From Candidatus Stoquefichus sp. SB1 (GTDB lineage Bacteria; Bacillota_I; Bacilli_A; Erysipelotrichales; Coprobacillaceae): a stretch of DNA of 32,000 bases. The stretch is taken from positions 288,656-320,655 of the forward strand of contig NZ_LN852693.1 in the NCBI RefSeq assembly GCF_001244545.1. Direction: 5' to 3'. Both the position numbers and the translations under genes were made by a program. The number at the start of each line of letters is the position of its first letter. Position 1 is the stretch's first letter. Below, one piece after another: positions 3,153 through 31,351 of this stretch. The notes under the pieces are model-generated. The model was not told the origin of the DNA. It made no database searches and was given only the letters and a program-made list of their open reading frames with translations.

Positions 3153-3203
3153 ATTCCATTCTCCTTTTTCTTATATACTATATGTTACAACAAGCTTAAA
3201 TAT

Positions 3204-3225
3204 GAAAAAAAGAGCTTACGCTCTT
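3204..3225 (-). terminator. Rho-independent terminator overlapping the efp stop codon
   Basis: Minus strand AAGAGC-GTAA-GCTCTT followed by a T-run (TTTTTC). Confidence 0.75.
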
Positions 3226-3779
3226 CCTTGATATTTTCCATCTTCTGTATTCACAATAACTTTTTCTCCTTCATTAATAAATAAAGGAACTTTGATTTGG
3301 TAACCTGTTTCAATAGTTGCATTTTTAGTTGCACCTGTTGCAGTATCACCTTTAACAGCAGGTTCAGTTTCAGTAACTGTAAAAGCCACATTGACAGGTA
3401 ATTGAACACCTAAAACCTCATTTTCAAAACTTGTGACTTCTACCTCATCAGATGGTTTTAAAAAGTTCATTTCCCATTTTAAATGATCAGCAGGAATTTC
3501 AATTTGATCATATGTTTCATTATCCATAAAAACTAACATATCCCCTGAATCATATAAGTATTGCATTTTTCTTTTTTCAATATGTGCTTTGGCAACTTTT
3601 TCACTATTTCCAAAAGTTACTTCAGTTGTAGAACCAGTTCTCATGTTTTTCATTTTCACTCTAATATTAGCAGCAGCACGTGCTGTTTTATTATGTGAAT
3701 ATTCTAAAACAACATATAAATTGCCATCATATTGAAAAGTCATACCTGGTCTTAAATCACCAACATTAATCATATTCAA
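3216..3779 (-). CDS. efp: Elongation factor P
   Basis: 187 aa. MNVGDLRPGMTFQYDGNLYVVLEYSHNKTARAAANIRVKMKNMRTGSTTEVTFGN... and the C-terminal GDTATGATKNATIETGYQIKVPLFINEGEKVIVNTEDGKYQGRA. Confidence 0.97.
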   Translation of the reverse strand: MNMINVGDLRPGMTFQYDGNLYVVLEYSHNKTARAAANIRVKMKNMRTGSTTEVTFGNSEKVAKAHIEKRKMQYLYDSGDMLVFMDNETYDQIEIPADHLKWEMNFLKPSDEVEVTSFENEVLGVQLPVNVAFTVTETEPAVKGDTATGATKNATIETGYQIKVPLFINEGEKVIVNTEDGKYQGRA

Positions 3780-3856
3780 TCTCTCCTTTGTAAGTTTCCC
3801 TACGCATTATAACAAATTTTTTCATATATGTAAAATAAATCTATTACTTTTTAGAC

Positions 3857-4009
3857 TCAAAATAAAATGACAAAAATGATATCAACACATAAGAGTATCC
3901 CAATAACAATACTGATTTGTTTTTTTCGTTTATCTGTATCACAAATTTTTTCACGATACACACTAAGTAAAAAACATATCATTAAAATAGCAAATAAAAT
4001 ATATAGCAT
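3857..4009 (-). CDS. Small two-TM membrane protein (50 aa), apparently the last ORF of the comG operon
   Basis: Not in the ORF track. Translation is MLYILFAILMICFLLSVYREKICDTDKRKKQISIVIGILLCVDIIFVILF*. The ATG is 2 nt after the comGG-like stop, with a GGAGGG Shine-Dalgarno inside the comGG 3' end. Confidence 0.6.
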   Translation of the reverse strand: MLYILFAILMICFLLSVYREKICDTDKRKKQISIVIGILLCVDIIFVILF

Positions 4010-4011
4010 AT

Positions 4012-4392
4012 TTATCCCTCCACATAGCTAAATTTTGTAACTTCAAACGTATCTGTTCGTATATTTAATATAAATGAATAGTTGATCTTTTCAGATGATA
4101 TATGCGTTGTAATTTCATAATAATCTCCTAAATCCTCAATGAGACTTTGAATTGAATATTCATCATCCATATAATCATCACTTAATAAAATATCATTTTG
4201 CATTTGATCAACATAATATTGAGTCAGTAAAATCTCTAGATTTTTTTGCTTCATGAGAAGTTGAATAGATGTATAGTTTTTGGCATTTTGTCGAATTAGA
4301 AATAATCCTACAGTTAGAGAAAATGTGAATACTAAAAAAGTCACAAGTACAATTTGTAATACGGATCCTTTATTGTTCTGTAATGATTTCAT
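4012..4392 (-). CDS. ComGG-like minor pseudopilin
   Basis: 126 aa. N-terminal hydrophobic helix (NNKGSVLQIVLVTFLVFTFSLTVGLFLI). Position is last among the pseudopilin ORFs. Confidence 0.6.
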   Translation of the reverse strand: MKSLQNNKGSVLQIVLVTFLVFTFSLTVGLFLIRQNAKNYTSIQLLMKQKNLEILLTQYYVDQMQNDILLSDDYMDDEYSIQSLIEDLGDYYEITTHISSEKINYSFILNIRTDTFEVTKFSYVEG

Positions 4393-4825
4393 CGTCTATC
4401 TCCTGTTTTTCTTTTGCAAAAGTAAGCAAGAACTGATATTCTTTTTCATTGCGAACGACATTCATATAAATCATATCATGCTTCATTTCAAAAGAAAGAT
4501 CATCGATATTGGTTATCATAATCTCAAATCCAGGCGTTTTAACAAGACGATGATTATCTATATCAAATGTCATGATTTCACCGTCATAATTATAAAAACT
4601 GTATTGCTCACCAACGTCTTCATAATTTGTTCCCAACACCTCCTGACTGATTTGTTTTGCAGCTATAAAAATATCTTCATCATATTGTGAAATGTTTTGA
4701 GCATGTGAAATCGTGCGATACATCCCAAACAAACTTGTTACAATAATCAATGAAATTCCAAATGAAAATAAGACTTCAATCAATGTAAAGCCATTTGAAT
4801 TAATTCTGTAAAATCTTCTGAAAAT
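4370..4825 (-). CDS. comGF: ComGF-like minor pseudopilin; start re-annotated upstream to a non-canonical codon
   Basis: The reading frame upstream of the track start encodes RRFYRINSNGFTLIEVLFSFGISLIIV, a class 3 prepilin signal (G^FTLIE). The frame is open back to a TGA at 4834..4832. Confidence 0.65.
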   Translation of the reverse strand: MFRRFYRINSNGFTLIEVLFSFGISLIIVTSLFGMYRTISHAQNISQYDEDIFIAAKQISQEVLGTNYEDVGEQYSFYNYDGEIMTFDIDNHRLVKTPGFEIMITNIDDLSFEMKHDMIYMNVVRNEKEYQFLLTFAKEKQEIDDEIITEQ

Positions 4826-4989
4826 GATATTTCACCCTCTTTCTTTAAAACATCTTGATAATACTGACTGATTTTCGTTTCATTGGAAAAAAGATTCGTC
4901 ATTAAACCCATATAGATTACCAATACAGATATAAAGATTTCAAAAGCAAACAAACTTTCAATCAGTGTCGAGCCTCTTTTACCTAACAT
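4780..4989 (-). CDS. comGE: ComGE-like minor pseudopilin
   Basis: Internal start MLGKRGSTLIESLFAFEIFISVLVIYMG within ORF 4780..5064. Prepilin-like N-terminus. Between the comGD-like and comGF-like ORFs. Confidence 0.6.
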   Translation of the reverse strand: MLGKRGSTLIESLFAFEIFISVLVIYMGLMTNLFSNETKISQYYQDVLKKEGEISFSEDFTELIQMALH

Positions 4990-5368
4990 AAAAGCACCCA
5001 CTGCCCACTTGAAAAACAAACTGATATTGTTTTTTAGAAGTATGTAAAACAACCGTCTTAGCACCTTTAATATTCCCTGAAAGATTAAAGGTCATTTCGT
5101 GTGGTTCAAAAAAACTTTGATCATATAATTGATATTCTTTATTAAAATCAACACTGTGGTAAACAATTTCAGAATTTGAAAATGTTAATGTTACTGTCTG
5201 TTTATACGTCATTGCTGTTAATTTTGCTTCATTTAAAAAACCAATGATTTCTTGAACAAGCATACTCTCACTCTTTTGTGGCATATGTAATGTTAAAGAG
5301 AGAGTTGATAAAATGCATATAACAAATAATACAAATAATGTTTCAACTAAAGTAAATCCTTTATTCAT
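4979..5368 (-). CDS. comGD: ComGD-like minor pseudopilin
   Basis: MNKGFTLVETLFVLFVICILSTLSLTLHM. The start codon overlaps the comGC stop (ATGAATAA). Confidence 0.75.
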   Translation of the reverse strand: MNKGFTLVETLFVLFVICILSTLSLTLHMPQKSESMLVQEIIGFLNEAKLTAMTYKQTVTLTFSNSEIVYHSVDFNKEYQLYDQSFFEPHEMTFNLSGNIKGAKTVVLHTSKKQYQFVFQVGSGCFYVR

Positions 5369-5666
5369 CAGCATAAGCTTGACCATCGCTTATAGATATT
5401 GATTTTCCATTTGGACATATTCCTTGCTTTTCTGTTAAATAGGGATGACTACCACTTGTTAAATCAGAAATACTTGTTGGTAACTCTCCATTTTCAATTT
5501 CATATAACAAAATCTGAGAATTCACAACTTCAACTTGTGCTTCACAACCTTTGTTTTTAACAACAGTATTTTTAGAAGTAACATTAGGTATAACAAGAAG
5601 CAAAATAACTAATATCACACTAATACAGAAAATCATTTCAATTAAAGTAAATCCTTTTTTGTTCAT
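5361..5666 (-). CDS. comGC: ComGC major competence pseudopilin
   Basis: 101 aa. MNKKGFTLIEMIFCISVILVILLLVIPNV...KGCEAQVEVVNSQILLYEIENGELPTSISDL. Confidence 0.9.
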   Translation of the reverse strand: MNKKGFTLIEMIFCISVILVILLLVIPNVTSKNTVVKNKGCEAQVEVVNSQILLYEIENGELPTSISDLTSGSHPYLTEKQGICPNGKSISISDGQAYADE

Positions 5667-5682
5667 TTTTATTCCTTCCTTT

Positions 5683-6714
5683 CTAAATATCTGAGATTAC
5701 ATTCATCATTGGAATAATAATCGAAACATAAATCGTAATAACAAAAACTGCTACAAACCCATAAATTGATGGAACAAGATATTTTAAAAATTGGGATATC
5801 CAAAGATCAATCTGTTCATAAGTCAAATCAATATAATGTGCTAAAGATTGCTTTTGAACTGGATTTTTCATATACATTTGAAAAAAGCTTAAAAACAAAC
5901 GATCAAAATACTCAAAATCTTCTAAAATATCTTCTAGTGCTTCACCTTCATGTAATCTGTTATTCATTTCATAAAGCACAATTTTTAAATCACTTTCTGT
6001 CATTTGTTCATTCAAAAGTGCAATAATACTTGTACTATCAATTTCTTCATTAAGAAGTTCATGATAATAAACAGCAAATTTAAGAGAAAAATATTTTTGC
6101 AAACAAATTTTAAAGACTGGTAATTTCAAATACCACTCAATAATTAAATAAGATTTATGACGTAGTGCAAAAAATAGTCGAATAAGTAAAAACACAATAA
6201 GACTCCCAATAGAAATAATTAAAATTGGCATAAAATAGAAAAAGAAAAACATAATTTGAATCATAAGACTCTTTTGAATTTGAAAAGAATCAAATAGCTG
6301 ATTGACATTTGGTAATAAAATAAATACAACAAAAATAGAAAAAAGAAGCAAAAAAGTCATTAAAATAAGAGGATAAGTTAATTTTGATTTTAATTGATTT
6401 TGATACTCTTCTTTCATCATACAAATATCTAAACTCTTTTGAATAGCTTCAGATAAACAATTCTTATTTTTAAAAAAATAAAAGTATTCTAAAAATAATT
6501 TTGGAAAATCCCCACTTATAATAACCGTTTCTAAAGATTCACCATAATGTAACTGATCAATCATTTTTGTTATTATAGGATGATGCATGATATGCTGACA
6601 AATATGTAATGTTTCTTCAATACTATAACCTGCCTCCAATAAAGTATATAGATTTTTTAAAAGCAGATAATCTTTATTCATATTGATATTCTCCTGTAAA
6701 TAACTCTCTATCAA
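5683..6714 (-). CDS. comGB: ComGB, GspF/PilC-type inner-membrane platform protein
   Basis: 343 aa. Multiple TM segments with duplicated T2SF-like halves. Between comGA and comGC. Confidence 0.88.
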   Translation of the reverse strand: MIESYLQENINMNKDYLLLKNLYTLLEAGYSIEETLHICQHIMHHPIITKMIDQLHYGESLETVIISGDFPKLFLEYFYFFKNKNCLSEAIQKSLDICMMKEEYQNQLKSKLTYPLILMTFLLLFSIFVVFILLPNVNQLFDSFQIQKSLMIQIMFFFFYFMPILIISIGSLIVFLLIRLFFALRHKSYLIIEWYLKLPVFKICLQKYFSLKFAVYYHELLNEEIDSTSIIALLNEQMTESDLKIVLYEMNNRLHEGEALEDILEDFEYFDRLFLSFFQMYMKNPVQKQSLAHYIDLTYEQIDLWISQFLKYLVPSIYGFVAVFVITIYVSIIIPMMNVISDI

Positions 6715-7660
6715 AACCTTGATTTATTAATTTTTGAGCTTGCTTTGCAAACGTTGAATAATTTGTTTCGTGATTTTGAAAGTAAGAGAAAATCTCTTCT
6801 TTATTCATATACTCTGATAAAACAATAACTCTTTGATTCTTTGAATCATATTTCATCCTTTGCGACATTGCACCTATAACAACATCACAGATATCTATTT
6901 CATTTACTTCTAGATTCATTAAACGTTTTAATGATAATAATGCATTGCTTGCATGAATAGTTGTTAAAACTAAATGCCCTGTCAAAGCACATGTAATCGC
7001 AATTTTAGCTGTTGTCACATCACGTATTTCACCAATCATAATAATATCTGGATCATGCCTTAATATCTGCTTTAAAGTATCCTGATAAGTAATTCCTAAC
7101 TTTTCATTTAGTTCAATTTGTAAACAGTTCTCTAATTGCATTTCAATAGGATCTTCAATTGTAATAACATTCTTATTATCATGACGAATAATTTCTTTAA
7201 GAACAGTATATAAGGTCGTGGATTTCCCTGATCCCGTTGCTCCACTAATTAAAAATAAGCCACTTTCCTGTTTTGTTAACCACATTAAATAATGAATAAT
7301 ATCATCTTGGTAAGAAAGTTGTTCAATTGTACCAATCTCATGATTGTTAAGAATCCTAATGACAATACTTTCAAAATTTTGTGATGGCAGATAAGAAATT
7401 CTCAAGAAATACTCTTTTTGATGTATAGTTGTTGAAAAATCACCAGTTTGAGGAAGAAGTCGATAATTTGTATTGATGAGCGCTCTATATTTAATATAAT
7501 TCATCAATTTACTTCCTAAATCATTTTCTAAACAATCATAATTTTTTAATTTCCCAAACAACCGAAAACGAATATAAAGACAATCTTTTAAAACCATATG
7601 TATATCTGTAGCTTTCATTTTCAAAGCCCGATACATCACCTTATCAAATAGTTCATCCAT
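6674..7660 (-). CDS. comGA: ComGA, GspE/PilB-type secretion ATPase
   Basis: 328 aa. Walker A GATGSGKSTTLY, Asp box TIEDPIE, Walker B ILRHDPDIIMIGEIRD, His box ALTGHLVLTTIHA. Confidence 0.95.
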   Translation of the reverse strand: MDELFDKVMYRALKMKATDIHMVLKDCLYIRFRLFGKLKNYDCLENDLGSKLMNYIKYRALINTNYRLLPQTGDFSTTIHQKEYFLRISYLPSQNFESIVIRILNNHEIGTIEQLSYQDDIIHYLMWLTKQESGLFLISGATGSGKSTTLYTVLKEIIRHDNKNVITIEDPIEMQLENCLQIELNEKLGITYQDTLKQILRHDPDIIMIGEIRDVTTAKIAITCALTGHLVLTTIHASNALLSLKRLMNLEVNEIDICDVVIGAMSQRMKYDSKNQRVIVLSEYMNKEEIFSYFQNHETNYSTFAKQAQKLINQGFDRELFTGEYQYE

Positions 7661-24883: not shown

Positions 24884-25345
24884 TTAAAACTTAACAGCTA
24901 ATCTTATAAAAGCAATATCTTGATATTGCAAAGTACAAGTCTTCTTAATATTTTTCACTAAATATTGAAACTCAATTGTTTCATTATCAACACTTAAAAT
25001 AGTTCCATAAACATCATCCATTCCCTGGGTTGGTTTTTTAAACTGGATATAGACATATTCACCAACTGACTGTTGTACTTTTTCTAATGTTTTTAATGGC
25101 TTTTCAGCACCTGGAGATGAGATTTCCAAATAATATTCATTGGTAATGATATCAGCTTCATCAAGCTTTTCGCTAATCTCCTCACTTACAGCAACACAAG
25201 TATCCATATCTAAGTGATCATTATTTTTTTCAATGAATATTCTTAGATACCACTCATTTTTTTCATTCACATATTCAATATCATCAAGATAGACATCATG
25301 ATTATCAAGAATAGGTTGAATTAATTTTTTAATTGTCTCTAGCAT
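24884..25345 (-). CDS. rimP: Ribosome maturation factor RimP
   Basis: 153 aa. EWYLRIFIEKNNDHLDMDTCVAVSEEISEKLDEADIITNEYYLEISSPGAEKPL. Upstream of nusA. Confidence 0.94.
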   Translation of the reverse strand: MLETIKKLIQPILDNHDVYLDDIEYVNEKNEWYLRIFIEKNNDHLDMDTCVAVSEEISEKLDEADIITNEYYLEISSPGAEKPLKTLEKVQQSVGEYVYIQFKKPTQGMDDVYGTILSVDNETIEFQYLVKNIKKTCTLQYQDIAFIRLAVKF

Positions 25346-25370
25346 ATAATCCTCCGTTTACAAATATAAA

Positions 25371-25390
25371 CGAGAGGGTTGCCCCTCTCG
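25371..25390 (-). terminator. Hairpin upstream of rimP, probably the ancestral polC terminator
   Basis: Perfect 8-bp stem CGAGAGGG / CCCTCTCG with 4-nt loop, followed on the minus strand by TTTATATTT. Confidence 0.6.
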
Positions 25391-25451
25391 TAAATCACTG
25401 ATTACATGTATAATATAACATAGTTCAATACAAAAAACAATGCTTTCATCA

Positions 25452-25525
25452 ATATTTTCCTACAAATCAAATAAAGACAGCTGATTTTCATCAGACATAT
25501 TCTCAAAGACACCGATTTTTGTTAA
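25452..25525 (-). repeat. Copy A of a 74-bp direct repeat: displaced duplicate of the polC 3' end, including stop codon
   Basis: 72/74 identical to 27027..27100 by eye. On the minus strand it still reads K I G V F E N M S D E N Q L S L F D L stop. Confidence 0.95.
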
Positions 25526-25628
25526 ATTTTATCCATTAAAAAGTTTTTTATAAATAAACAATCATGAAATCTTTATAACTCTTTGCACTTCTTTCACTAT
25601 AATTGAAAGCACCCTTATATCCAATTAA

Positions 25629-26309
25629 TTAATGAAATAAGTTTTCAAATTGATTAAAATTCATTTCATTTGAAAAATCATTTATGCGACCATATTCAGA
25701 CCTAATGATAATATTTTTAGAATTGACCTTATATTCTTTTTCAATTGTTCCATCCGTATTCATAAGCTGAGACTCTAATTTTAACTCATTATTTGTTATA
25801 GAAACCATGAAAGGATAAACAGCACCATAATAATTATGTTGAGTGGGTTCATTATTTAAGAATAAAATATATTCTTTATTTAAATCAGGTTCAATATAGG
25901 TTTGATCCAATGCAATAACTTTTGGTGTGTTTTTATTAATATCAGCCATGTCAGGAATATCATTATGAGCTGTATAATAAATTGTTTCACTATACCTTTG
26001 ATTAACCTGAATATTTGATACATTTTTAGCAAGCCCTTTATAGATATGAGTGATTTCAAAATTGTAAACACGTCCTATTGTCTCATATATATCACTTGGG
26101 TTGTCATCAATATCTCTTGCCATATTCCATTCATGGCTAAATTTAGTAAAATGACCTTTAACAACAACCTCACTTTGAGTAATTAAATCAGTATATGAAT
26201 TAGCAATAGGTAAATCAAATTTACTAACGATAACTTGTGGCTTATATAATAAATATATGGCAAAACATAAGACAAATAATATTGGAATAAAATATTTTAA
26301 TTTTTTCAT
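25629..26309 (-). CDS. Membrane-anchored extracytoplasmic protein, unknown function; candidate partner of the metalloprotease
   Basis: 226 aa. N-terminal TM (MKKLKYFIPILFVLCFAIYLLY) and beta-rich ectodomain (SEVVVKGHFTKF...GRVYNFEITHIYKG...NIQVNQRY...KEYILFLNN). Starts 8 nt after the protease 3' ORF. Confidence 0.75.
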   Translation of the reverse strand: MKKLKYFIPILFVLCFAIYLLYKPQVIVSKFDLPIANSYTDLITQSEVVVKGHFTKFSHEWNMARDIDDNPSDIYETIGRVYNFEITHIYKGLAKNVSNIQVNQRYSETIYYTAHNDIPDMADINKNTPKVIALDQTYIEPDLNKEYILFLNNEPTQHNYYGAVYPFMVSITNNELKLESQLMNTDGTIEKEYKVNSKNIIIRSEYGRINDFSNEMNFNQFENLFH

Positions 26310-26317
26310 ACTCTCAC

Positions 26318-26842
26318 CTACTTATATAAAGATTTTACTCGACTAATATCGATACTTTGTGGTGTGTATAGACTGCCTCTATTTCTATTACCATTCATAA
26401 TTGAAGTCCCCGAAGTCAAATCGTCCAATCCCCATGAATGACCCAATTCATGAGTAGCCGTACTTCTTGCCACATTTGTTGAATAAACTTTGCTATTACC
26501 AATATTCACTCTTGCTAAATATGATGTCATAGTTTCCCATATGTTGACTGGATAATTAATTTAACCGTATAAAGTTGAACTTGTTTCTTTCATAAGTCCT
26601 TGTTTATAATTACTGTCAGACATATAGTAATATGTAACACCCACCAAAGATGTCCATGAGCTTCTTGCTTGATTCCACGCTGTCTGTAAACTATTATCCA
26701 TACTCATAGAAGAATCCCAACGATAAGAAGTTGCAAATGCAGGTAATTTTTGTCCTAATTCCCAATCAGCAGCAACAATAGAAATATTAAACAAACATAA
26801 AGTAAATATAATTATAAAGAGTTTTAACTTTTTAAATTTCAT
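26318..26842 (-). pseudogene. Secreted zincin-type metalloprotease interrupted by an in-frame TAA (or a split gene)
   Basis: The track ORFs 26561..26884 and 26318..26530 are in the same frame. The joined reading is MKFKKLKLFIIIFTLCLFNISIVAADWELG...SSTLYG*INYPVNIWETMTSYLARVNIG...VARSTATHELGHSWGLDDLTSGTSIMNGNRNRG. Features are a signal peptide, an HExxHxxGxxD zinc site and a Met-turn-like SIMN. Confidence 0.8.
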
Positions 26843-26989
26843 ATAACTCCTTTCCAAACCCCTTATATCTCTTTCTAATTTCATTATATCATTATTTTAA
26901 TAAAAATTATGGAATTCATATAGAATTTTACATATTTTTATCATTTTATATGACAATCATCAATTGAATAAATACTCAAAGTTGTATTT

Positions 26990-27027
26990 TAAAACGTATA
27001 AATCTATGACAAGATTTATACGTTTTA
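26990..27027. repeat. 16-bp perfect inverted repeat abutting the polC-side insertion junction
   Basis: TAAAACGTATAAATCT (26990-27005) - ATGACA - AGATTTATACGTTTTA (27012-27027). May act as a terminator for polC. Confidence 0.85.
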
Positions 27028-27100
27028 TATTTTTCTACAAATCAAATAAAGACAGCTGATTTTCATCAGACATATTCTCAAAGACACCAATTTTTGTTAA
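27027..27100 (-). repeat. Copy B of the 74-bp direct repeat (in situ polC 3' end)
   Basis: Matches 25452..25525 with two mismatches, at 27034 and in the ATT/ATC codon near 27090. Confidence 0.95.
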
Positions 27101-30100
27101 GAAGTCAATTTGGTTATTCGTCAGTTTTGTCCTTTTTGTGACATCTTCTTTAGATAAGAAAGAATTGTGTTTACGGGCTTCAATCACACTATCACCTACT
27201 GAAGCACCCAAACCATCTATAGAAGTAAATGGTGGCAATAAACCTTGAGGATCATCTGGATCTAATATAAAATTACGTGAATCAGATTTCTCTAAAGAAA
27301 TATTATTAAAATGAATATCTCTTTCATACATTTCTAAAGCAATTTCAAAAACAGAAATCAATGCTTCTTCCTTATTAGAAATTTTTACACCATTTTGTTT
27401 ATCAGATAAAATCTGTTGATATCTTGCCAGAATAGATTCTTTACCTTGAATCATAATTTCAATATCATATGCATCACAGCGTGTTGTAAAATAGACTGCA
27501 TAATATTCTCGAGGATAATAAAGTTTCCACCATGCCACACGAATGGCACTCAATACATAAGCAGCCGCATGTGCTTTAGGGAACATGTATTTAATTTTCT
27601 TACATGATTCAATATACCAAGAAGGAACATCATGCTCACGCATTAATTCTTCATATTTCTTTTCTGGGAATACAGCAGGTGACTTCCCTTTACGTACACA
27701 TTCCATAATATCAAAGGCATCTTTATTAGGCAATCCTTTTTCAATTAGATAAACCATGATATCATCACGACATCCAATAACCTCTTTTAATGTACATGTT
27801 CCAGAACTAATTAAGGTTTCAGCATTTCCTAAATAAACATCTGTTCCGTGTGATAAACCAGAAAGAATAACCAAATCGCTAAATGATGTTGGATGTGTTT
27901 GTTCAAGCATTCCGCGGACAAACTTTGTACCAAATTCGGGTAATCCTAAAGCCCCTGTTTTACAGTTCAAATAACTTAAATCTATACCTAATGCCTCAGT
28001 TGAATTAAAAAGACTCATAACACGAGGATCATTAGTTGGAATATCTTTTGGATTCACACCAGTTAAATCCTGAAGCATCCTAATCACAGTTGGATCAACA
28101 TGACCCAATATATCAAATTTCAAGACATTATCATGAATCGCATGGAAATCAAAATGAGTGGTTTTCCATTCAGCGCTTAAATCATCAGCTGGATATTGAT
28201 AAGGTGTAAAATCATAGACATCCATATTTTCCGGAATAACAATAATTCCTCCTGGATGCTGACCAGTCGTTCTTTTCACACCTGTACATCCTTTAGCAAT
28301 TCTTTCAAGTTCAGCTGCTCGAATAGTATTTTCTTTTCCCATTAATTCAGCATATCCCTTGGCATATCCATACGCTGTCTTTTCTGCTACAGTTGAAATT
28401 GTTCCAGCTCGATAGACATGGCTTTCTCCAAAAATCTCTTTTGTATAAGCATGTGCTGTTGGCTGATAATCCCCAGAGAAATTTAAGTCAATATCAGGAA
28501 CCTTATCTGCATTAAATCCCAAGAAAGTTTCAAATGGAATATTATGTCCATCTCCTTTTAATGGTTTTCCACAGACAGGACAAACTTTATCTGGTAAATC
28601 AAATCCATTCGCAATATATCCTTCTGGTAAAAACTCATTGTACTGACAATGCGGACAATAATAATGTGGAGGCAATGGATTCACTTCAGATATGTCAGCC
28701 ATTGTTGCAACAAACGAAGAACCAACTGAACCACGGCTTCCTACAAGATAACCAGCATCATTTGATTTTTTAACCAATTTATGAGCAATATAATAAATAA
28801 CGCCAAATCCATGTTTGATAATATTATCTAATTCCTTTGACAGACGCTTTTCAACAATATCAGGTAAAACCTCCCCATATTGTTTATGAGCATTTTCAAA
28901 ACACAATTTTCTTAAATTTTCATCTGCATTATCAATATGTGGCGTAAATAATTTATCATGAACAACATGAAAATCACCATCAATCATATCAGCAATCTTA
29001 TTGGTATTTTCTATAACATATTCATATTTTTCATTATCATTTAAATAGTCAAGAGAATCCATCATTTCTTGGGTTGTTCGAAGGTATTCATCTGGCGTCC
29101 AAGCCATAGGATTATTACGATCAGTCAAAGGATGTAATGTTCCTCCCAGCCCTATTTTTGGGTTACATGTGAATACATCACGGAAAATTTTATCTTTTTG
29201 ATCAACATAATGAACATCACCTGTCGCAACAATCAATTTTCCCATTTCTTTAGCTGTATCAACAATACGACGTAATATACGCTTTAAATCATCTTCTGTA
29301 TCAACACGTCCTCTTTCTACAAAATAACGGCAGATATCAAATGGTAAGATTTCAATATAATCATAAAATGCCATAGCCGCTTTTAATTCATCAATACTTC
29401 TTGTCATAGCCAATTCAAAAATTTCTGAATTGTAACATCCACTTCCAAACAATAAACCTTCACGATAAAATTCTAAGCGTTCACGTGGTATACGTGATGT
29501 TTTTTGATAATATGTTGTATTGGCTTCAGAAACGAGCTTAAACATATTCTTTAAACCTGTTTTATTTTTGGCAAGTACACACATATGTTTTGGTCTAACA
29601 ATCTTATATGCGTCTTCACATTCCATTGCATTCATATCTAAAAGATTGTATTTTTGGTTTTGCATCATATCATGTAACATCATGTTAAAAACACCTGCAA
29701 GAACTTCGGCATCATAATCAGCACGATGGGCCTCATCACCATCATAAGCAATACGATAATTACGGGCAACATTTCCTAAACGATATCCTTTAAGTTGTGG
29801 TAATAGTTTCCATGCTAATGTCAAGGAATCGACAGCTGGGTTTTTTAATTTTTGATAGCCATGTCGCTGTAAAATTTCATTTAAAAATCCAACATCAAAA
29901 GTTGCATTATGGGCAACAATAACATCATCACCAAAGAAATCTAAGATTTTTGGAATGAATTCTTCTATTGTTGGTGCATTTTTTACATCTTCATTTGTGA
30001 TATGTGTTAAATTCGTGATTTTTTGTGAGATGCGCTTATTCGGTTTAATTAAGCTTTGAATACGACCAATCTCTTGACCATTTTTAATACGTACTGCACC

Positions 30101-31351
30101 AAATTCAGTAATATCATCATCCATTACAGAAAGTCCTGTTGTTTCAAGGTCAAAAGAAACAAATGTCATGTCCTTTAAAGAAACATCTTTCTCATTATAA
30201 ACAACTGTAAATGATGGATCAATCATATACATTTCTACACCATAAATCATCTTAATCTTATTTTTGATACTTGCCATCTGGGCCTCAGGAAACGACTGAA
30301 CATTTCCATGATCTGTTACAGCAATAGCAGAATGTCCCCAAAAAGCAGCACGTGATATGTAATCGCTAATTGTTCCTATACCATCCATGGCAGACATTTT
30401 AGAGTGAACATGAAGTTCAACACGTTTTTTATCTGCATTGTCTTGTCTCACTTTAGGGGTAGGAATAATTTCTACTTCTCTTGCAATAATAACGGTATCT
30501 TTAGCAAAGGTATCATATTCAACATTGCCTTTAATTCTAACCCACATTCCACCTTTTTTAACTTTATTTAATTCTTCAAGGCTATTAGCTCCTTTATTTT
30601 CAAAACGTTTAACCACAATACTATTAGTATAATCAGTCACATACAATGATTGAATTGTCTTGCCTGTCTTTACTTTTTTAGAATCTTCTTTAAACACATA
30701 TCCTTGGATCATAACTTCTTTCACTGTTTCATCAATTTCATCAATAGTTAAAGAAAAATAATCTTTTTTATAACTTTGATATTTAGGCTTTTTGTCAACC
30801 ACAGTTTCCTCTACCTGATCAAAAGTCTGACTATCAACTTGAACCTCGTTTAAAGCATTCATTTCCTCTTGAATTGACTGATAAATCTCATTGTTATGAT
30901 CAATATAAGCATTGAAACCAATTTGAATACCAAACTTATTAAAATATTTATCAAATATTTTATAAAGATGCTGTAATTGACTTAATTGTATCTCATTAAG
31001 AACTTCAATATTTAAAGTATTCTCTTCAAAAGATAAACTTTCTTCTTTAATAAACTCAAGTTGAGGAAAACGACTTTTTAAACCATTAAAAATAAACAAT
31101 GCATATTCTTTTACATCTGTTGGTGTATAAGATGACATCCAGTCAAAAATAAAATCACATGGATATGGAAATTCTTTTTTAGCTGAAAAAAGAACCCTTA
31201 TTTCATTTAAAGGAACAATATGTGATGCAACAACATAAAACACATATGAATTATCTGCATTCACAATAACTTTTTCAATATTGGCCTGTTTTAATTCAAC
31301 AACTTCATCTTCTAAATGCAGTTGCTGAAGCAAAATTAACATTTTATTCAT
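27035..31351 (-). CDS. polC: DNA polymerase III PolC-type alpha subunit
   Basis: 1438 aa. PHP motif RVELHVHSKMSAMDG, exonuclease FVSFDLETTGLS, polymerase region VPDIDLNFSGDYQPTAHAYTKEIFGESHVYRAGTISTVAEKTAYGYAKGY, C-terminus NQLSLFDL. Confidence 0.98.
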   Translation of the reverse strand: MNKMLILLQQLHLEDEVVELKQANIEKVIVNADNSYVFYVVASHIVPLNEIRVLFSAKKEFPYPCDFIFDWMSSYTPTDVKEYALFIFNGLKSRFPQLEFIKEESLSFEENTLNIEVLNEIQLSQLQHLYKIFDKYFNKFGIQIGFNAYIDHNNEIYQSIQEEMNALNEVQVDSQTFDQVEETVVDKKPKYQSYKKDYFSLTIDEIDETVKEVMIQGYVFKEDSKKVKTGKTIQSLYVTDYTNSIVVKRFENKGANSLEELNKVKKGGMWVRIKGNVEYDTFAKDTVIIAREVEIIPTPKVRQDNADKKRVELHVHSKMSAMDGIGTISDYISRAAFWGHSAIAVTDHGNVQSFPEAQMASIKNKIKMIYGVEMYMIDPSFTVVYNEKDVSLKDMTFVSFDLETTGLSVMDDDITEFGAVRIKNGQEIGRIQSLIKPNKRISQKITNLTHITNEDVKNAPTIEEFIPKILDFFGDDVIVAHNATFDVGFLNEILQRHGYQKLKNPAVDSLTLAWKLLPQLKGYRLGNVARNYRIAYDGDEAHRADYDAEVLAGVFNMMLHDMMQNQKYNLLDMNAMECEDAYKIVRPKHMCVLAKNKTGLKNMFKLVSEANTTYYQKTSRIPRERLEFYREGLLFGSGCYNSEIFELAMTRSIDELKAAMAFYDYIEILPFDICRYFVERGRVDTEDDLKRILRRIVDTAKEMGKLIVATGDVHYVDQKDKIFRDVFTCNPKIGLGGTLHPLTDRNNPMAWTPDEYLRTTQEMMDSLDYLNDNEKYEYVIENTNKIADMIDGDFHVVHDKLFTPHIDNADENLRKLCFENAHKQYGEVLPDIVEKRLSKELDNIIKHGFGVIYYIAHKLVKKSNDAGYLVGSRGSVGSSFVATMADISEVNPLPPHYYCPHCQYNEFLPEGYIANGFDLPDKVCPVCGKPLKGDGHNIPFETFLGFNADKVPDIDLNFSGDYQPTAHAYTKEIFGESHVYRAGTISTVAEKTAYGYAKGYAELMGKENTIRAAELERIAKGCTGVKRTTGQHPGGIIVIPENMDVYDFTPYQYPADDLSAEWKTTHFDFHAIHDNVLKFDILGHVDPTVIRMLQDLTGVNPKDIPTNDPRVMSLFNSTEALGIDLSYLNCKTGALGLPEFGTKFVRGMLEQTHPTSFSDLVILSGLSHGTDVYLGNAETLISSGTCTLKEVIGCRDDIMVYLIEKGLPNKDAFDIMECVRKGKSPAVFPEKKYEELMREHDVPSWYIESCKKIKYMFPKAHAAAYVLSAIRVAWWKLYYPREYYAVYFTTRCDAYDIEIMIQGKESILARYQQILSDKQNGVKISNKEEALISVFEIALEMYERDIHFNNISLEKSDSRNFILDPDDPQGLLPPFTSIDGLGASVGDSVIEARKHNSFLSKEDVTKRTKLTNNQIDFLTKIGVFENMSDENQLSLFDL

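Follow-up and report, generated by a model that had tools for sequence, protein, structure and literature searches.

In a 32,000-nucleotide stretch of DNA from Candidatus Stoquefichus sp. SB1 (hereafter the window), the spacer between polC and rimP holds a small cassette that is bracketed by two copies of the polC 3′ end. The polC gene (27035..31351, minus strand) encodes the DNA polymerase III PolC (1438 aa), and the identical gene of contig L001 contains the Pfam domains PHP, RNase_T, DNA_pol3_alpha and HHH_6. The C-terminus of the protein reads ...ENQLSLFDL*, in which we take QLSLF to be a clamp-binding-type motif. On the other side lies rimP (24884..25345, minus strand), the first gene of a rimP-nusA-ylxR-L7Ae-infB-rbfA operon. 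Read in the sense of polC, a repeat (27100..27027) is followed by an insert of 1,501 bp (27026..25526), a second repeat (25525..25452), a spacer of 106 nt and rimP. The first copy, termed DR-R (direct repeat; 27027..27100, minus strand), is the functional gene end and consists of the last 21 codons, the TAG stop codon and 8 nt. The second, DR-L (25452..25525, minus strand), is a displaced, non-coding copy contiguous with the ancestral leader. An earlier note on this DNA had described 74-bp direct repeats with two mismatches, one synonymous and one 3′ of the stop, with abruptly ending homology and a GC-rich, terminator-like hairpin beyond the displaced copy, and all of this was borne out. The copies agree at 72 of 74 nt with a start-to-start distance of 1,575 nt, and they differ by a synonymous ATT/ATC exchange and at the base immediately 3′ of the stop. 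Alignments of the copies with each other and with relatives break off sharply at both repeat ends, and structure prediction placed the hairpin and a T-run at 25370-25391 (minus strand). The GC content of the insert (20–34%) is lower than that of its flanks (29–38%), and its ends carry no terminal inverted repeats.

The 74-nt pair is the sole high-identity direct repeat of at least 30 nt that a repeat search detected in the window. When 1.34 Mb of fetched Bacillota loci were searched for dispersed repeats (at least 55 nt, 88% identity, spacing 0.3–8 kb), only three were obtained, namely the window pair, the corresponding pair of a second species and a repeat within a gene of locus L017. A chance origin of the repeat is excluded. 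We also considered and rejected an assembly artefact, as both copies are spanned by contigs from independent samples and assemblers (L001, L002, L006). Relatives were found by scanning species-representative genomes with the PolC C-terminus, by RimP homologue look-ups and by searching metagenomes with a degenerate polC-end pattern. The earlier note had proposed an insertion rather than an old tandem duplication, an ancestral order of polC end, terminator-like hairpin and rimP, and a search for relatives with single-copy polC–rimP regions; more than 15 related species agree with it on each point. Here a single polC end leads into TGATGAAAGCATTGTTTTTT, then a stretch of variable sequence, the same hairpin and rimP, at a polC–rimP distance of about 115–120 nt, and these sites have one repeat copy and lack the second as well as 25526..27026 (L011, L104-L108, L109-L111, L113-L118, L122-L124). 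The closest relative found at the DNA level, L122, is known from a single 1.2-kb contig; it is 88.6% identical to the window across rimP and the beginning of nusA and 84.3% identical across the polC end. Its junction, ...GATTTATAGAAAAATAT|TGATGAAAGC, corresponds to the window minus 25526..27026 and one repeat copy. The polC 3′ end of the Candidatus Stoquefichus sp. SB1 lineage has thus received an insertion of 1,501 bp of foreign DNA (25526..27026, minus strand). Owing to the 74-bp duplication polC keeps its last 21 codons, and the old end stays on the rimP leader as a dead copy.

The ancestral spacer (25346..25451, minus strand) comprises TGATGAAAGCATTGTTTTTT, a variable stretch, GTAATCAGTGATTT, the GC-rich hairpin with its T-run, and the ribosome-binding site of rimP. 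This leader is conserved in all relatives and matched no Rfam family. At the opposite junction, a perfect palindrome with a 16-bp stem and a 6-nt loop (26990..27027) begins on the last base of DR-R. Its predicted folding energy is about –20 kcal/mol (z-scores –4.7 and –5.7), a T-run is present on the plus strand only, and A-rich sequence comes next when reading in the polC sense. The palindrome looks like a structure that would terminate plus-strand transcripts heading into polC and not those of polC itself. The dead copy keeps a putative 12-codon mini-ORF (open reading frame), MSDENQLSLFDL (25455-25493, minus strand; ATG TCT GAT GAA AAT CAG CTG TCT TTA TTT GAT TTG TAG), which includes QLSLF.

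A search for other cargo between duplicated polC ends, as suggested in the earlier note, yielded one further case. In a second species, whose RimP is 87% identical to that of the window (loci L099-L103; metagenome-assembled genomes GCA_047008925.1 and GCA_902471365.1), L099-L102 contain a 0.9-kb insert between polC and rimP with one gene of 246–248 aa that matched no family. The insert is flanked by an 81-nt duplication of that species' own polC end. Comparison of the two inserts revealed no shared sequence, coding or non-coding, the ends included. The left repeat boundary lies in both species at a Leu codon 21 codons before the stop, with an offset of 1 nt, and the right boundaries are 11 nt apart (+11 relative to the polC stop in the window species, +22 in the second species). 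Furthermore, a hairpin begins exactly at the repeat/cargo junction in both, that of the second species (L099 5920-5955) being a normal terminator in the polC sense. As far as the compared sequences tell, the polC 3′ end has served as an insertion site more than once. No polC-end duplicate was present in 76 other Bacillota polC loci.

Other relatives harbor still other genes in the polC–rimP spacer: L112 (reverse complement, 3175-7050) a 1,248-aa repeat-rich surface protein, L017 (6904-12900) xpt-pbuX together with a surface protein similar to that of L112, and L012 (6895-8164) a 239-aa lipoprotein on the opposite strand. In all, the window included, the spacer has at least five different contents. 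Wherever the conserved leader is recognisable (window, L099-L102, L112), every insert sits upstream of the CATTGTTTTT block, and the few bases between the polC stop and this block serve as an insertion hotspot.

Strains of the second species revealed an exchange between the repeat copies. A G/A polymorphism that alters a polC codon (Asp/Asn) reappears, strain by strain, in the dead copy: both copies of L099 read GATGAT (5871-5876, 6846-6851), and both copies of L100-L102 read GATAAT (L100: 5875-5880, 6846-6851). Differences between the copies persist at the repeat edges: in the window species these are positions 12 and 67 of the 74, in the second species positions 4 and 12–14 and an A-run near the right end. 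We regard the mirrored polymorphism as direct evidence, at the sequence level, for gene conversion between the polC end and its dead copy. With gene conversion at work, the identity of the repeats (97% and 95%) cannot be used to date the insertions. The locus is a clean natural example of concerted evolution between the end of a coding gene and a dead copy.

Conversion also bears on the idea that the polC end was duplicated once in an ancestor, with later turnover of the cargo, repeats kept alike by conversion and precise losses in the empty lineages. The shared left boundary would then simply be inherited, the high repeat identity would give no date since conversion is demonstrated, and precise loss by recombination between the repeats is mechanistically easy. 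Moreover, a neighbour-joining protein tree (about 790 aa) weakly pairs the two repeat-bearing species on a very short branch. The DNA comparison points elsewhere: when identity is taken over short stretches (about 750 nt of rimP-nusA and 357 nt of polC), the window species is closer to the empty-site L122 (88.6%) than to the second species (84.6%), and the second species is nearest to the empty-site L111 (88.8%), so that the two are apparently not sisters. As each of them has an empty-site species for a nearer relative, a single duplication would require no fewer than three independent precise losses. In addition, the inserts share nothing, yet both sit exactly at the copy junction, the right boundaries do not coincide but lie 11 nt apart, and a cargo swap that preserved the left boundary to the nucleotide would call for a donor with the same repeats. 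We consider a single ancestral duplication improbable.

The cargo of the window consists of two genes on the minus strand. For the first, the earlier note's metalloprotease ORF, the assignment stood and the gene model did not. An in-frame TAA (26561-26563, Gln to stop) splits the gene (26318..26842) into ORFs of 93 and 70 aa, and the real start is the ATG at 26842 rather than 26884; the intact allele of other strains encodes 174 aa. The predicted product, a pseudogene in the window strain, is a small secreted mtz-like metzincin with a signal peptide-like N-terminus and with the zinc motif (HELGHSWGLDD) and Met-turn (SIM) that mark this class. Its matches to Reprolysin_5 and Peptidase_M10 both fell below the Pfam cut-off, and homologues on Bacillus plasmids are annotated as 'matrixin family metalloprotease'. 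The membrane-anchored partner that had been noted next to it was recovered as a tim-like ORF of 226 aa (25629..26309) with an N-terminal membrane helix and a beta-rich ectodomain. Searches of Pfam, NCBIfam, PADLOC and PDB sequences gave no match for this protein. An AlphaFold model built from a 40-sequence alignment reached a pLDDT (predicted local distance difference test) of 94.6, and its only PDB matches with E < 1e-3 were to human TIMP-2 (1br9; 2e2d_C), in its free and MMP-13-bound forms, at modest TM-scores of 0.33–0.40, an NTR domain ranking next. The model suggests a TIMP/NTR-like fold for the ectodomain. The N-terminal Cys by which TIMPs chelate zinc is absent from the partner.

The partner family comprises 156 representative clusters, and adjacency of protease and partner is kept down to 29–35% identity. 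That the two cassette proteins are functionally linked is supported by natural fusions, in which the partner domain comes after a Peptidase_M10 domain; in P0148 (420 aa) and P0159 (387 aa), the matrixin part spans about residues 120–180 and the partner domain about 180–384. Homologous pairs were detected on megaplasmids of the Bacillus cereus group, beside an IS4-type transposase of another gut bacterium (L091) and on the plasmid-like contig L094, adjacent to a tyrosine recombinase. On L094, the recombinase (6360-7620; Phage_integrase, E 4e-14) directly follows the pair and has 55% GC in a contig of 30% GC; this compositionally foreign patch of roughly 1.2 kb holds the recombinase only, and the contig also carries Replic_Relax and AbiEii. 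Upstream of the protease gene of the window, a candidate extended –10 element, TGATATAAT (26883..26891, minus strand), was read by eye and was not listed by a consensus scan. It lies about 40 nt upstream of an AAGGAG ribosome-binding site and the ATG at 26842, and the cassette operon apparently has its own promoter.

To follow the cassette within the species, we used ten contigs whose RimP is identical to that of the window (L001-L010) and L128, whose RimP is 99% identical. Three contigs cross the whole region (L001, L002, L006) and contain the cassette together with both repeats, whose two fixed differences are the same in all three. Five others contain the cassette and the rimP-side copy, two of them beginning inside the cassette (L005, L008) and three running into an insertion sequence (IS) element within it (L003, L004, L007). 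The remaining contigs (L009, L010, L128) begin inside the repeat, which is explained by the tendency of assemblers to break at repeated k-mers. Every conspecific contig that reaches the locus thus has the cassette or breaks in the repeat, and an empty site was not found among them. DR-L has acquired private mutations in several contigs (L003/L004, L128). The cassette diverges by 1.6–1.9% between strain lineages, and polC, rimP and nusA by 0.35–0.45%, from which it follows that the cassette is at least as old as the present diversity of the species and evolves under relaxed constraint.

The protease was inactivated independently, and the partner ORF was retained. The window, L005, L006 and L008 share the Gln-to-stop change; in L003 and L004, a Gly of the zinc motif HExxHxxGxxD is replaced by Glu; and in L003, L004 and L007 the end of an IS200/IS605-family TnpB element lies inside the signal-peptide region. 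The insertion point corresponds to about window position 26800, where the contigs end (L003 1-240, L004 1-220, L007 40-165), and the fragment holds the C-terminal part of TnpB (Pfam Cas12f1-like_TNB, E 1e-9) together with a structured right end. The protease is intact in L001, L002 and L096, and the partner ORF is intact in all strains. The cassette looks fixed and decaying in Candidatus Stoquefichus sp. SB1.

Architecture and composition of the cargo resemble the mtz-tim pair of Listeria, which is of phage origin and consists of a secreted metzincin and a TIMP-like lipoprotein (Boichis et al. 2021, PMC8235301). In Listeria the cell wall is modified when Mtz cleaves Tim, and mtz-tim pairs of other Firmicutes reportedly adjoin integrases, transposases and prophages (PMC8235301). 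Both systems share the gene order, the gene sizes, a small metzincin with signal peptide, HExxHxxGxxH/D motif and Met-turn, an envelope-associated protein encoded directly after it, for which a TIMP-like fold is suggested here, and an association with mobile elements. In contrast to Tim, the partner described here has an uncleaved-looking N-terminal membrane helix instead of a lipobox. The Listeria function is cell-wall sensitisation via Tim cleavage; in the window strain, the protease is a pseudogene. The cargo showed no detectable sequence similarity to phage records. We therefore class it as a pair that would act in the manner of mtz-tim, and as a putative member of that group at most.

Taking these data together, we tentatively favour, with rather less than even confidence, a non-autonomous, att-flanked cassette of the type of a cis-mobilizable element (CIME), now fixed and decaying, with repeats homogenised by gene conversion. 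CIMEs are elements without integration and transfer genes that have kept attL and attR (PMC5704250). Conservative site-specific recombination at an attachment site (attB) in the polC 3′ end would have inserted the cassette, the two repeats would represent attL and attR, and the recombinase would have acted in trans or would have been lost. After integration, gene conversion would have kept the repeat interiors identical and host-like. This reading is favoured because an unrelated cassette in an apparently non-sister species uses the same polC position with the same architecture. In both species the repeats run from a fixed start through the stop and end at a variable distance beyond it, which is the pattern expected if an element supplies its own version of the gene end into which it integrates. 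Several hallmarks of integrative elements were found, namely direct repeats, one of which regenerates the polC 3′ end, relatives with a single-copy attB, and different cargos at the same site. The links of the cargo pair to plasmids, a recombinase and a transposase were counted for site-specific integration as well, as was the reported position of the analogous Listeria pair beside integrases, transposases and prophages.

A number of observations weigh against site-specific integration. No integrase had been seen in the insert in the earlier note, and ORF and domain searches confirmed this; the search for one at the same locus in relatives, which the note had recommended, ended negatively. Altogether, the insert, the window and the polC–rimP regions of relatives yielded no recombinase gene, and an autonomous element flanked by polC-end repeats was not found either, so that these loci supplied neither a cognate recombinase in cis nor a related autonomous element. 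The insert also contains no transposase, the IS605-type element of some strains being a later, separate insertion. Neither an attP-like copy of the polC end in IMG/VR, INPHARED or PLSDB, nor a match of the insert DNA in plasmid or phage collections, nor a report in the literature that names polC as attB was found. Within the species, neither an excised circle nor excision polymorphism was seen among the contigs read. No dyad-symmetric core stands out within the repeat. Moreover, the 74-bp repeat is longer than the att identity blocks of protein-coding targets, which measure roughly 10–30 bp. Three further lineages (L112, L017, L012) have their spacer inserts without any duplication, and part of the 'site specificity' could therefore reflect selection for the one spot that tolerates inserts. 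Finally, neither repeat copy looks foreign: identity to the closest relative found amounts to about 82% across the repeat segment and to 83–84% across upstream polC in both species (own count), and both copies appear host-like. A copy brought in by an element should appear foreign if conversion has not erased this signal, and in this respect the repeats argue against att sites. By the same token, gene conversion makes their host-like appearance a weaker argument for a host-derived duplication.

Host-like repeats are what would be expected if an undescribed process delivered single-operon cassettes to the polC 3′ end without a recombinase gene and copied about 75–80 bp of the host target from a fixed start, the repeats then not being element-borne att sites. 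We judge such a process quite improbable. A transposition-like event, in which staggered cuts about 75–85 nt apart were filled in after joining of the cargo to leave a long target-site duplication, would likewise account for repeats that are host-derived and flank the cargo exactly in both species, for a duplication coupled to insertion in both cases, and for the missing recombinase-type att partner in the collections searched. The duplications differ in length, however (74 vs 81 nt), and the terminal inverted repeats and transposase by which a transposable element is recognised are lacking, as are shared ends of the two inserts. No transposase is known to make duplications of this length, the known ones being about 2–15 bp, and we consider this event highly improbable.

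Another origin of the repeats could lie in homologous recombination. In a RecA-driven, Campbell-type single crossover, a small circle from the same or a close species, carrying the cargo and about 75–80 bp of polC 3′ end, would integrate to give the order polC–[repeat]–cargo–[repeat]–leader. Such a circle could form by pop-out between the repeats elsewhere and spread by transformation. This scenario would explain that both copies are host-like in each species, without a drop of identity across the repeat, and that no recombinase was found in the loci and collections searched; the mirrored polymorphism, too, fits homologous exchange acting on the repeats. The minimal substrate reported for homologous plasmid integration in Bacillus subtilis is about 70 bp, and the repeats of 74–81 bp lie near this value. 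A competence pilus operon in the window is in keeping with uptake of such circles. This ComG-type pseudopilus operon (4012-7660) encodes a T2SSE ATPase, a T2SSF platform protein, N-methyl prepilins and ComGF, and the host may, as far as can be told from these genes, be naturally transformable. What a crossover of this kind explains poorly is that unrelated cargos in apparent non-sisters have repeat starts no more than 1 nt apart, a coincidence of roughly 1 in 100 by our own estimate if boundaries could lie anywhere in the last 300 nt. Random fragments are expected to vary widely in length and often to be longer, and the way in which the first circle acquired its polC fragment is left unexplained. 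We therefore regard this route as unlikely, though as a serious competitor of site-specific integration.

The consequences depend on the mechanism. If the repeats are att sites, the polC 3′ end would be a previously unrecorded integration site, gut Coprobacillaceae would carry tiny recombinase-less cassettes moved by an unseen partner, and this partner would be a site-specific system aimed at an essential replication gene. If the repeats are host-copied or RecA-made, accessory genes would enter the tail of an essential gene and be exchangeable without dedicated machinery, which would bear on the formation of small 'hotspot' islands. A process that copies host sequence would represent a new way to add genes behind an essential gene while leaving it undamaged. 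Irrespective of the mechanism, the cargo places the little-studied bacterial metzincin/TIMP-like pair in gut Erysipelotrichales as well, and a confident structural model is now available for a partner family without a Pfam entry.

The polC 3′ end is best described as a target that has not been recorded before for a recombinase-less, att-flanked cassette, and three known systems invite comparison. Minimal mobile elements, e.g., of Neisseria, also place different small cargos at the same intergenic spot in hosts with competence genes. They move by homologous recombination in the flanking genes and leave no target duplication, whereas the target is duplicated here. Pseudo-SCC elements (SCC, staphylococcal cassette chromosome) at the 3′ end of rlmH (orfX) in staphylococci are recombinase-less, flanked by direct repeats and thought to be moved in trans by the recombinases of related elements. 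They share with the present locus a recombinase-less cassette, direct repeats and the 3′ end of a conserved gene. Pseudo-SCC elements use sites of the Ccr serine recombinases of about 15–20 bp and have abundant autonomous SCC relatives; in contrast, neither such short sites nor abundant autonomous relatives were found here. Streptococcal CIMEs at gene 3′ ends, or attL- and attR-flanked decayed remnants of ICEs (integrative and conjugative elements) and IMEs (integrative and mobilizable elements), differ from the cassette in that no cognate ICE/IME or polC-3′-end integrase is known or was found for it, and in that its repeats comprise 74–81 bp of protein-coding sequence and are longer than the att blocks given above. 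Like the cassette, however, they are small accessory segments without integration or transfer genes, they are flanked by direct repeats of which one completes a housekeeping gene, and their relatives carry different cargos at the same site.

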